From contig CBDVAV010000001.1 in assembly GCA_965372055.1 (NCBI GenBank), positions 1 to 32,550 on the forward strand: DNA of 32,550 nt, read 5' to 3'. The notes beneath the pieces are model-generated. The model was not told where the DNA came from and did not search any database. It saw nothing but the letters and a program-made list of their open reading frames with translations. This DNA comes from an uncultured bacterium (GTDB lineage: Bacteria; Bacteroidota; Bacteroidia; Cytophagales; Cyclobacteriaceae). The translations under genes were made by a program, and so were the position numbers. Below are positions 3,038 through 5,431 of this stretch, piece after piece; the stretch's first letter is position 1; each line of letters opens with the position of its first letter.

Positions 3038-5431
3038 CTAGCGACTCAGCCACACTTTCATCTCCTCGCTGGCCTCCAATTTTTCTATCTCTGCCCGGGC
3101 CTTTTCTACTTGTTCCCGACCTTGCTGAATGATCTGTTGAAATCTGGGGTCATCCCACAGGCTTTCCAAAGGTGGATCATACAAGGCGAAATCGTGCAGC
3201 CCATCACCAAAGCCAAAATTTCCATAATGTTCCAGCCATTTCAAAGCCTCATCCTTGTCACCTAGTTGGGCATATACTTTGGCCAGTTCGTAGCCAATTC
3301 CTTTTGCCCACTGTCTTTTCCTGGCCACTACTTCCAGCAGGAAGTCCCTGATCTCGATCAAGTTTTGATGGGCCTCTTCCTCTTTTCCATTTTGTTTTAA
3401 TACATAACTGTACATGTGTTTATCGTTATACCCTTGAATTCTAATTACATCAGGTGAGCTGTCGTACAATTGTCTAAAATACTTTTCCGATTCATGGTAG
3501 TTGCCATTCATCATATTAATGATGGCCAGATGATACAGTACCTGGCCTTCAGGATTGATAGCTTTCAATTTTTCAGCAATGGGCAGGTTCTGTTTAAATT
3601 TTCCCTGGCAACGGTTAGTGTGAGCTAATCCTCCATAAGCTAGCACATGATCAGGTTGAATCTTTATCACTTCATTAAAATAATGCTCCGCTTTTTCGTA
3701 GTCTCCAACACTTAAGTAAAGCCGTGCGAATTGCATATAAAGTTCTGTTAACTCAGATCCTTTGATCAATGGCGAGGCTCTTACCAGCAATCTGAAGCGA
3801 ACTGAAAAATTATTTTCTAGGAAGTGAATATCGGCCAGTTGTAACATGGCCTCAGTATAGTTAGGGTTGATTTCCAGCGCCTGATCTAGGTCTTCCAGGG
3901 CTTGGGTTTTGGAGTTGGCAATCCAGTAGTAGTACTGACCTCGGAGGGTATAGGCCTCAGCAAGATTAGGATCTATTTCCAGTGCCCGGTTGCAAAGCAT
4001 CAACATGGAATCCAGTGGTTGCTCATCCAGGTATTCCCTAAAAAAATTTCTATCATAATAAACTTCGGCCAAACCGGCATAGGCCAGCGCAAAATTGGGA
4101 TCAGCTTCCAGGGCACGACGATACAGGCTTACTGCATTTTCGTAATCCTGGTTTTCGGTCTTGTTGTGGTATCGCTTGGCATATTGCTTTCCCCTTATAT
4201 AATATTCGTATGCTTCAGTGCTTTCCGTTGCCAAGGTTGTTAATCCTGATACTTCTTCTGGGGATATCTTTAATTTCAGTTGACTCACAATCTCTTCAGC
4301 TATCTTTCTTTGAATATCAAAAATACCCCGCGTGGTGTATTCTGAAGTGAAGTTATCTGCCCAAATATGCCTGTCATCATCTGTACTTATTAGCTGTGCG
4401 GTAATCATTATCTGGTCTTCTGATTTACGTACACTTCCTACTAATAAGTAACTTACTTTCAACTCTGTACCTATTTCATTAGCTGGTTTTTTCGTGTCCC
4501 GGTATTGTTCCACGGAGGTTCTTGAAATTACCCTTAGTTCTCCCATCTTCTGTAAGTTTGTAAGGATGTCTTCCATTACTCCATCAGCGAAATATTGTTG
4601 GTCTCCTTGCGGGCTCATGTCCGCAAAAGGAATTACTGCAATTGATTTATCAATTATCTTTACTGTTTCACTATCCTTTTGGTTATTATAAAAGAAATAA
4701 GCTAAAGCAAGGATTAGAATTACACCTATGGAAGCTAAAAGGATTTTGCTCTTGTTTTTTGGTTTTGATTCTATTGAAGGAGAAGCGATTGTAGATGTTG
4801 ATTGGACTCCTTCTTTTTCAATCTTGAAAGAATCTCCAATTTTCAGTCCTGATACTATCTCTTGTATAGCATTTGCTACTTTGTTGATTTGATTGCGATA
4901 ATTAGTCCTATTCAGATTATCTTCTTTGTTGTCCTCCGGTTTGAGTGGTCTGTTTACCCCTGGCTCTTGATATACAAAATCAATTGATCTTAAAAAGCCA
5001 ACCTCATCTTCTACTAACTGTCTATCTGCATCACTAATATCATGAATCCTTATAGGTAAAACCCTACTTGCAGTATTGCCATTTGGAAGTTCTACTTTCA
5101 AACCATGATCGTCAGCTTCCGCCATTTTATTGAATGCCAAAAATTCATTAGTCCAGGCGAAGCTATTGGGGTCACAGTAGGTTTTAGATATGATGGGGAT
5201 AAAGATTAAACACTTTAATTTCTTAGCTAAGGAATCATCTACATCATGAGTTTCCAGTAAACCATCGTATGGGTTTTCATCAAAATAGATGGAGATGTAT
5301 TCTTTGAAAGTAGCTTCAATCTCACTCTTTAATGTATTGATAAACTCTGTAACCCATCCATCCAGTTTGTTATCCTTCTGGCGATAACTGATGAAGATGT
5401 CATATTCGTAGCCTGGGATAATTGAAGGCAT
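3038..5431 (-). CDS. TIR domain - single TM - TolB-N-like module - TPR repeat protein (paralog 1)
   Basis: 797-aa ORF. The N-terminus [12 protein letters not shown]...[26 protein letters not shown] is TIR-like. One hydrophobic helix [19 protein letters not shown] spans aa 230-248 (nt 4688-4744). [32 protein letters not shown] follows, then ~400 aa of TPR-like repeats. Confidence 0.85.
   Translation of the reverse strand: [797 protein letters not shown]

Follow-up and report, generated by a model that had tools for sequence, protein, structure and literature searches.

A TIR gene in a Cyclobacteriaceae chromosome

The stretch of DNA considered here, referred to as the window, comprises the first 32,550 nucleotides (nt) of contig CBDVAV010000001.1 (assembly GCA_965372055.1) from an uncultured bacterium of the Cyclobacteriaceae, phylum Bacteroidota. 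On its minus strand, an intact open reading frame (ORF) at 3038..5431 starts with ATG and encodes 797 amino acids (aa); we call it the TIR gene. Its product is a modular protein which, read from the N-terminus, consists of a divergent and probably cytoplasmic TIR domain (aa 1–~201; 4829..5431, minus strand), a variable, low-complexity tether predicted to be cytoplasmic (aa ~202–229; 4745..4828, minus), one transmembrane (TM) helix of the signal-anchor kind (aa 230–248; 4688..4744, minus), an alpha/beta sensor subdomain with a fold like those of TolB_N, FlgO, and the periplasmic part of CadC (aa ~258–386; 4274..4660, minus), and a helical TPR array which continues to the stop codon (aa ~387–797; 3038..4273, minus). 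The motifs, hydrophobic helix, and TPRs from which an earlier note on this DNA had read a receptor-like TIR protein are all present in the intact ORF (motifs at aa 10–21, 75–85, 90–97, 230–248, and 262–289).

A search with aa 1–393 retrieves over 4,400 homologs (>4,400), as a rule ~50% identical across the full length of the query, and the ORF is therefore not a chance reading frame. Their source names are limited to "TolB-like protein," "tetratricopeptide repeat protein," and "hypothetical protein," and a precomputed Pfam TIR annotation is found on none of the >4,400. The Joint Genome Institute (JGI) label "TolB-like protein" is only partly apt for the TIR gene product. TolB joins an N-terminal TolB_N domain to a C-terminal six-bladed PD40 propeller in a soluble periplasmic protein with a signal peptide, whereas the TIR gene product shares with it only the TolB_N-like fold, carries TPRs in place of the propeller, and is TM-anchored; it scores 19.5 bits against the TolB model TIGR02800, for which the cutoff is 343.

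A divergent TIR domain with conserved putative active-site residues

The assignment of the N-terminal region to the TIR domains, first made from short motifs, is borne out by structure prediction. An AlphaFold2 model of aa 1–205 reaches a predicted local distance difference test score (pLDDT) of 88.2 and a predicted template modeling score of 0.86, and its secondary-structure elements follow the TIR order betaA–alphaA–betaB–BB loop–alphaB–betaC–alphaC–betaD–alphaD–betaE–alphaE. When this model is compared with the PDB by Foldseek, ranks 1–22 are all TIR domains, among them those of RPP1, BtpA/TcpB, AbTir, MyD88, L7, the SPARTA TIR-APAZ protein, RUN1, BtTir, IL-18R-beta, SARM1, and TLR1, with generic flavodoxin-like reductases ranking lower. 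Within the domain, box 1 (YDIFISY, aa 10–16), a low-confidence loop resembling the BB loop (aa 50–63), beta-C (aa 74–81), alpha-C (aa 91–106, with W93 and the putative catalytic E96), a beta-hairpin insertion carrying the sequence GVNRPL (aa 153–163), and an alpha-E-like helix (aa 178–202) can be delineated. The octapeptide YDIFISYR at aa 10–17 conforms to the box-1 pattern (F/Y)D(V/I)F(I/L)S(Y/F) and aligns to PDVFISYR of SARM1 and YEVFLSFR of L6.

Direct sequence comparison traces the same relationship more faintly. TIR_2 is matched by 35 of 38 family members, in every case below threshold (best E 3.2e-4), and essentially no other Pfam family appears. A phmmer search of aa 1–229 against the PDB returns no match; a search of the same database by hmmsearch with the 38-sequence family profile A1 places the flax L6/L7 TIR first at an E of only 0.14, in an alignment which ends before alpha-C; and hhalign against a single SARM1 TIR aligns box 1 alone. 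The TIR call lies below the Pfam threshold and is based on structure prediction and profile–profile alignment. On these models, the N-terminal ~200 aa is a divergent TIR-fold domain.

This extent is larger than had been supposed. The earlier note allotted the TIR domain ~135 aa and placed a ~95-aa linker behind it; neither figure holds. Residues 135–200 are modeled at pLDDT >90 and are highly conserved, with invariant R148, F152, G158, GVNRPL motif, Y178, Q181, and K184, and on both grounds belong to the TIR-like domain, whose last helix hhalign aligns, at low confidence, with the "W..AL..V" motif of plant alpha-E. Most of the supposed linker is therefore TIR domain, and the true linker is ~27 aa long.

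The catalytic glutamate of TIR enzymes lies on alpha-C (E642 in SARM1, E100 in RUN1, E135 in L6) and is usually preceded by a tryptophan. To locate its counterpart, the family profile was aligned by hhalign with a profile of four PDB-verified plant TIR sequences (L6, L7, RPV1, and RUN1), SARM1 and L6 having been checked residue by residue against their PDB chains. The alignment spans 110 columns over aa 6–142 (probability 81%, E 1.2e-5, score 40.0), and control profiles, one reversed and 30 with their columns shuffled, score at most 20.0. In it, W93 and E96 fall on the Trp and Glu of the plant WCLxEL motif, Y85-C-D with Y-A-D, and a 14-residue family segment with the plant segment RIILPIFYMVDPSD. 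In the RUN1 chain of PDB entry 7s2z, the wild-type WCLDEL reads WCLDAL, which marks the residue aligned with E96; we take the altered residue to be the catalytic E100. Moreover, E96 falls six residues into the predicted alpha-C, in the same place as in SARM1 and the plant TIRs. The context S90-F-A-W93-T-N-E96-F97, which had been said to match that of the catalytic Glu residue for residue, does so at W93 and E96, but one gap between these two breaks the strict correspondence.

Conservation singles out the same residues. In an hmmalign alignment of 265 homologs, S15, Y16, D51, W93, E96, N119, and R123 are invariant (265/265), as is S15-Y16-R17 of box 1, and 60 positions of the TIR domain are at least 97% conserved. 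As judged from these alignments, E96 is the counterpart of the glutamate that distinguishes NADase-type TIRs (those that cleave nicotinamide adenine dinucleotide, NAD), and the domain is probably catalytic, a putative NADase. With L6, RUN1, RPP1, SARM1, AbTir, BtpA, and ThsB it shares the fold, a box 1 of the form (Y/F)D(I/V)F(I/L)SYR, a Trp-x-x(-x)-Glu motif on alpha-C, and a flexible BB-loop region. It differs from them in a 3-residue insertion before alpha-C, the beta-hairpin with its invariant GVNRPL, a long alpha-E, its membrane tether, and scores below the Pfam TIR and TIR_2 thresholds.

The chief rival to an enzymatic function is that the domain is a non-catalytic, adaptor-type TIR: a homotypic module like those of the Toll-like receptors (TLRs) and MyD88, through which membrane-bound paralogs recruit each other or TM-less adaptors with no cleavage of NAD+. 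A shared interaction surface would fit the near-identity of TIR domains among paralogs, seen both in the ~87% identity between the TIR gene and its neighbor paralog B and in the 60 positions conserved across the 265 homologs; it would likewise fit the adjacency of forms with no, one, and three TM helices in a single locus, and the TIRs of MyD88 and TLRs are among the top structural matches. Adaptor TIRs, however, commonly lack the glutamate, whereas the NADase residues of this family—the alpha-C Glu, the Trp before it, and S-Y-R of box 1—vary in none of the 265 sequences, and bacterial and plant NADase TIRs stand equal or higher in the Foldseek ranking. We therefore regard a purely scaffolding TIR as rather unlikely.

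Tether, membrane helix, and topology

The tether that follows the TIR domain is ~27 aa long, varies freely in both sequence and length among homologs, and ends in the basic stretch KPKNKSK; its delineation draws on this variation, on charge, and on pLDDT, which sinks to 57 where the TIR model ends. The lone hydrophobic helix reported earlier at aa 230–248 is confirmed as the sole segment whose 19-residue Kyte–Doolittle mean reaches 1.6 (value 2.55). There is no signal peptide in the TIR gene product, the N-terminus opening directly with a folded domain. Four Lys/Arg residues flank the helix on its N side, compared with a net charge of 0 on its C side.

The same asymmetry runs through the relatives. 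Among 201 single-TM homologs, the 15-residue flanks hold on average 4.66 Lys and Arg on the N side versus 2.87 on the C side (Wilcoxon p ~1e-28), and net charges are +3.7 and +0.95, respectively; the N flank is the richer in 164 of the 201 and the poorer in 9. Predicted TM helices number one in the TIR gene product and three in each of its two paralogs in the window, odd counts throughout. The positive-inside bias together with the TM count leads to a predicted N-in/C-out orientation, in which the TIR domain would be cytoplasmic and the remainder outside.

How general this arrangement is can be gauged from a genome scan that took one genome per species and returned at least 595 matches, the best 80 of which supplied the loci compared throughout. 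The 106 complete family genes in these 80 loci comprise 88 with one TM helix (~83%), 15 with none (~14%), and 3 with three (~3%); further counts of family members gave similar proportions. The TM-less members are ~685 aa long (P0090, for example) and join the TIR domain to the same TolB_N–TPR module by a hydrophilic linker of ~22–27 aa; having no membrane span, they are entirely cytoplasmic. The earlier picture of an intracellular TIR wired to an extracytoplasmic sensor thus stands for this gene and for ~83% of the family, but not family-wide, and a sensor that is always periplasmic was rejected once the TM-less members were found.

A predicted ectodomain with a CadC-like fold

On the far side of the helix, the alpha/beta subdomain, which contains the motif KSIAVIPF...QQYFADG, was delineated by Pfam, NCBIfam, AlphaFold2, and Foldseek. 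Scanned alone, aa 230–420 match FlgO at 26.4 bits against a cutoff of 22.6 (E 6.6e-6) and TolB_N at 22.8 against 22.4 (E 1e-4), both just over threshold. The NCBIfam CadC model covers aa 230–476 (E 3.5e-10) at 39 bits against an equivalog cutoff of 400, and the HilA model covers aa 299–496 (E 2.3e-8), likewise below its threshold. A PDB search with the sequence of the sensor segment returned an excess of TPR proteins of designed or consensus sequence and was uninformative for the alpha/beta module.

Structure prediction is more telling. The AlphaFold2 model of aa 257–512 (pLDDT 90.4) contains a subdomain of mixed alpha/beta structure and, after it, helical hairpins, and the first four Foldseek matches are all the periplasmic domain of Escherichia coli CadC (3LY9, 3LY8, 3LY7, and 3LYA; E 7e-7 to 7e-6) over ~300 aligned columns. 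Periplasmic proteins of the TolB_N fold come next: GNA1162, FlgT, the TolB N-domain, PelC, and LpoB. A TolB-N-like sensor module after the membrane anchor had been anticipated, and so had the TPR repeats behind it; Pfam TPR families match many times over aa 426–735, and a C-terminal cap at aa 714–769 is recognized by the NCBIfam model NF047558 (TPR_END_plus) at 64.8 bits against a cutoff of 32. As modeled, the ectodomain is a module of the CadC periplasmic type, with its helical half extended into a TPR array of ~400 aa.

HilA is a cytoplasmic regulator, and the division of the family into members without and with a TM helix mirrors that between HilA and CadC, the latter with its sensor in the periplasm. 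In proteins of the HilA/EilA type, as in the TM-less members, the sensor module is cytoplasmic; the output of HilA is DNA-binding, and it has no TM helix.

In two further family members, P0162 and P0213, the same TIR domain and TM helix are followed by a PD40/DPPIV_N/DUF5050 beta-propeller that replaces the TPR array. The extracytoplasmic sensor is thus modular, and the exchange of propeller for TPRs fits a variable ligand-binding end.

The fold of the ectodomain invites the opposite assignment of roles, in which the TolB_N-like and TPR parts form the functional end of an envelope scaffold or assembly factor, structural or chaperone-like as in TolB, LpoB, PelC, FlgT, or the TPR proteins of T9SS and gliding, and the TIR-like domain only senses or binds NAD or ADP-ribose (ADPR) to regulate it. 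The structural neighbors other than CadC are indeed envelope machines (TolB, FlgT, PelC, LpoB, and GNA1162); weak NCBIfam matches point to TPR assembly proteins of the PilW, Tgl, GltE, PgaA, and LapB types; and paralog C of the window is such a module with no TIR. Set against these observations, conservation within the protein is highest in the TIR domain, not in the ectodomain, the best match over both subdomains is the sensor CadC, and the TM-less members hold the module in the cytoplasm, where envelope assembly is impossible. A structural role in the envelope is accordingly very improbable.

Paralogs in the window and across the Bacteroidota

The TIR gene is one of a local group. Paralogs B and C both lie within 8 kb of it on the same strand. 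In paralog B (7441..10026, minus strand; 861 aa), the TIR domain leads into three TM helices, after which come a TolB_N-like module and a TPR array that has diverged; between this paralog and the TIR gene product, identity falls from ~87% in the TIR domain through ~75% in the TolB_N-like module to ~25% in the TPR array. Its three-TM module lies outside Pfam. Paralog C (11052..12845, minus strand; 597 aa) has no TIR domain; it carries the same three-TM module as paralog B, a TolB_N-like module with 38–42% identity to the family's sensor modules, and a TPR-like region that is degenerate, and so shows that the sensor part can occur with no TIR output.

An exhaustive hidden Markov model search of 1.84 billion cluster representatives, clustered at 50% identity, puts the size of the family at 1,593 clusters for an E cutoff of 1e-3, falling to 940 for 1e-10 and to 569 for 1e-30. 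Nearly all of the 150 matches listed carry the TIR domain at their very N-terminus. In the genome scan, the best 80 matches are almost all metagenome-assembled genomes (MAGs) of Bacteroidota, assigned to the Bacteroidales, "Rikenellaceae," Cyclobacteriaceae, Saprospiraceae, Cytophagales, and Flammeovirgaceae. Within these 80, the family is multi-copy, with several loci per genome, and 25 of the loci hold 2–5 paralogs within ~20 kb. Loci L031, L038, and L068 come from MAGs labeled Chloroflexota, Methanofastidiosum, and Dojkabacteria, one of them archaeal; all are short contigs of 2.7–4.6 kb with 67–68% identity to the Bacteroidota consensus, and most likely reflect binning contamination and not phyletic spread.

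Locus L003, in the Cyclobacteriaceae MAG GCA_016787405.1, holds neighboring TIR paralogs with no (684 aa), three (860 aa), and one (783 aa) TM helices at 1–2719 and 8001–16531. An S8 peptidase gene lies inside this array, and genes for nSTAND1, TPR-S, and MAP3K_TRAF_bd proteins, which are markers of conflict systems, lie 5–8 kb away.

Family-wide, very strong conservation of the TIR domain contrasts with divergence of the TPR part. Taken with the paralog arrays, this pattern fits one signaling module shared by many sensors.

Genomic context and the question of defense

The surroundings of the TIR gene in the window are those of an ordinary chromosome, with genes for creatininase, a protein with an aspartyl-protease domain, an aminotransferase in two pieces, sulfite reductase/siroheme/phosphoadenosine phosphosulfate (PAPS) reductase, Nnr, and NudC. 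No composition anomaly was found in the window. A scan for sigma-70 promoters and terminators gave counts no higher than expected from shuffled sequence, Bacteroidota promoter types being outside the scan's coverage.

Immediately beyond the 3′ end of the TIR gene and in the same orientation, 1239–2711 (minus) encodes a 490-aa protein with a C-terminal retropepsin-like Asp_protease_2 domain (aa 370–466), which does not recur beside family members in the 80 loci. A 100-aa ORF with a GTG start at 2751–3053 (minus) shares 16 nt with the 3′ end of the TIR gene; with neither a Pfam match nor a homolog in the 80 related loci, it is probably not a gene. Between the TIR gene and paralog B, the adjacent ORFs 5567–6094 and 6143–6889 (both plus) match Aminotran_5 over profile positions 3–107 and 129–335. 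They look like a single class-V aminotransferase or cysteine desulfurase broken by a frameshift or stop, which could be a pseudogene or a sequencing error. Two genes of NAD metabolism, for Nnr (NAD(P)HX epimerase/dehydratase; 22623–24125, minus) and a NudC-type NADH pyrophosphatase (24861–25763, plus), lie 17–20 kb from the TIR genes; their proximity to putative NADases is probably a coincidence. At 16866–18974 (plus), a sulfite/nitrite reductase (NIR_SIR) has a weak C-terminal HEPN match (aa 591–644, E 1.4e-4, just over the cutoff), an unusual fusion if real.

Clustering of 950 ORFs from the 80 loci disclosed no conserved partner gene. The commonest non-self cluster, present in 14 of the 80, belongs to one housekeeping synteny block (LigT-like, PIMT, and metallo-beta-lactamase (MBL) hydrolase genes), and none of the window neighbors of the TIR gene recurs. 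An operon-encoded effector was rejected on the same grounds. A DUF3267-like putative zincin of ~206 aa, with several TM helices and the motif HEGLH, is encoded by the gene that follows the TIR gene, in the same orientation, in 10–12 loci of one synteny group (L010, L018, L025, L035, L039, L042, L060, L063, L064, L070, L077, and L081); it is found neither in the window nor in most other loci.

These data bear on the proposal that the protein is a dedicated anti-phage sensor acting by abortive infection, its periplasmic ectodomain detecting a phage component or envelope damage at adsorption or injection and its TIR domain depleting NAD+ so that the cell is killed or arrested, as a membrane counterpart of cytosolic TIR–TPR systems, E. 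coli TIR-II among them. Precedent is on its side: a single protein combining TIR and TPRs protects E. coli from phage (PMC11350192), and TIR–TPR pairings recur in defense (bioRxiv 10.1101/2023.05.26.542521). A conserved effector, a diversifying repeat sensor, and arrays of paralogs are, in addition, typical of immune receptor families, and one array, that of L003, is near nSTAND1 and TPR-S genes.

The genomic record is less favorable. PADLOC assigns the TIR gene product to no defense family and returns only a generic TPR match (E 0.016), on which account identity with a known defense system was rejected; the neighbors in the window, such as creatininase, aminotransferase, and sulfite reductase, are housekeeping genes; and in the 80 loci no gene for defense or a mobile element turns up repeatedly. 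Arms-race proteins are usually much less conserved than this TIR domain. No relative occurs among 2.9 million viral contigs, and a phage origin was rejected. The chromosomal, housekeeping, and multi-copy context leans away from a classical mobile defense island, and a dedicated anti-phage function appears doubtful.

Partner domains of the STAND NTPase, SAM, SAVED, STING, and Argonaute kinds are absent from the TIR gene product in Pfam and NCBIfam scans, and with neither a specific defense-profile match nor a cognate partner gene, it is set apart from Thoeris ThsB, TIR-STING, TIR-SAVED, SPARTA, Avs-TIR, and TIR-II; no Thoeris-type effector gene lies nearby in the 80 loci. Cytosolic TIR–TPR systems (E. 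coli TIR-II, PMC11350192; BcTir/BcTpr, bioRxiv 10.1101/2023.05.26.542521) likewise combine TIR with TPRs, sometimes in one polypeptide, and the TM-less members of the family have the same layout. In contrast, those systems lack both a membrane span and a TolB_N/CadC-like module and reside in defense islands, whereas the family is chromosomal, multi-copy, Bacteroidota-wide, and mostly membrane-spanning.

A proposed receptor mechanism

Taken together, the predicted folds and alignments suggest a bitopic type II receptor of the inner membrane, built like ToxR and CadC, in which the DNA-binding output has been replaced by a divergent, probably catalytic TIR domain that would be activated by clustering. 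We put the probability of this reading at about one half.

In the proposed mechanism, the CadC-like/TPR module would bind a ligand in the periplasm, most likely a peptide or protein in view of what TPRs generally bind, and the ectodomains would then cluster or re-orient. The tether being short, of low complexity, and variable, rigid conformational transmission is unlikely, as for the cytoplasmic linker of CadC; a flexible tether would instead pass the signal by proximity, allowing the TIR domains to self-associate beneath the inner face of the membrane. TIR NADases become active on self-association, as established for SARM1, the resistosomes of plant TIR-type nucleotide-binding leucine-rich repeat receptors (TNLs), and the filaments of AbTir. 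Self-association here may similarly complete a composite active site, as in these three, whereupon NAD+ would be cleaved, with the consequence either of its depletion or of an ADPR-derived signal acting on unlinked targets. In the TM-less members, the same mechanism would operate with a cytoplasmic ligand. Each step of this scheme, from the binding of a ligand through clustering and NADase activity to the effect downstream, is inferred.

Several observations weigh against this interpretation. On the N-terminal domain, Pfam TIR_2 scores 14.7–15.2 bits (E 0.03–0.04) against a gathering cutoff of 28, and the structural matches to TIR domains are modest, with Foldseek E values of 2e-4 to 1e-2 and target-normalized TM-scores (template modeling) of 0.5–0.66. 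The assignment of E96 comes from an alignment of low-diversity profiles (effective number of sequences ~2) and not from superposition of coordinates. Many animal TIRs of similar fold are non-enzymatic adaptors. The ~14% of members that are TM-less have the same sensor module in the cytoplasm too, and the module is also matched, weakly, by the cytoplasmic regulator HilA. Finally, neither a neighboring effector nor a receiver of an ADPR-derived signal is conserved in the 80 loci.

A wider proposal, which we advance more tentatively and at somewhat less than even odds, extends the receptor mechanism to a large family of transmembrane TIR receptors in the Bacteroidota. A CadC-like/TPR (or PD40) ectodomain would switch on a TIR NADase by clustering and so convert an envelope signal into NAD+ depletion or an ADPR-derived messenger, adding a fourth output type to the DNA-binding, cyclase, and kinase outputs of one-component systems and providing a counterpart to the TLRs. 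The TM-less paralogs might serve either as cytosolic sensors or as MyD88-like adaptors. The role of the output could be either defense against phages or competitors or ordinary sensing of the envelope and environment; the anti-phage activity of cytosolic TIR–TPR proteins and a diversification like that of receptor families count in favor of an immune-like role.

Relation to known receptors

Two groups of receptors offer parallels. With CadC-type and ToxR-like proteins (E. coli CadC, 3LY7), the TIR gene product shares an N-terminal cytoplasmic output, which a flexible linker and one TM helix connect to a sensor in the periplasm with alpha/beta and helical parts. The output of CadC is a winged helix, whereas the family has a TIR domain with no match to Trans_reg_C and its helical part is lengthened to a TPR array of ~400 aa, capped by TPR_END_plus. 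The TIR gene product is thus CadC-type in its working; its score, far under the equivalog cutoff, shows that it is not an ortholog of CadC, and having no winged-helix domain, it is not a member of that family.

The animal TLR and IL-1 receptors provide the second parallel. They too are single-pass proteins with a solenoid-repeat ectodomain and an intracellular TIR, and form paralog families in which the TIR is conserved and the ectodomains diverge. The TLRs are type I proteins with N-terminal leucine-rich repeats (LRRs) and a C-terminal TIR, whereas the family is reversed: type II, with an N-terminal TIR, a CadC-like module and TPRs, no LRR match, and the catalytic Glu retained. The suggestion that the protein follows TLR logic in reversed domain order therefore stands for the layout, but the resemblance is an analogy reached by domain shuffling and not orthology.

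To our knowledge, the characterized bacterial TIR proteins all detect their triggers inside the cell. The membrane features of TLRs seem to be absent from bacterial TIR systems (PMC11350192). No description of the TIR–TM–CadC-like/TPR architecture was found in full-text literature searches, in agreement with the earlier note, which knew of no described function for it, and a 2025 systematic survey of bacterial TIR signaling does not mention it in the passages retrieved by keyword.

Implications

Both modules are of known kinds; what is new is their combination, the size of the family, and its missing annotation. The family is large, with at least 1,593 clusters at 50% identity and several copies per genome in environmental Bacteroidota, and current annotation misses it, the TIR domain being below threshold in Pfam and the proteins bearing names such as "TolB-like" or "TPR protein."

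The family would show that bacteria have coupled an extracytoplasmic repeat sensor to an intracellular TIR. If the TIR domain is active, NAD-derived signaling outside phage-defense islands becomes testable, the question arises of which periplasmic cues the Bacteroidota monitor, and the family bears on the repeated evolutionary origin of TIR-receptor architectures. If the domain is inactive, it would instead provide a bacterial example of an adaptor-type TIR.

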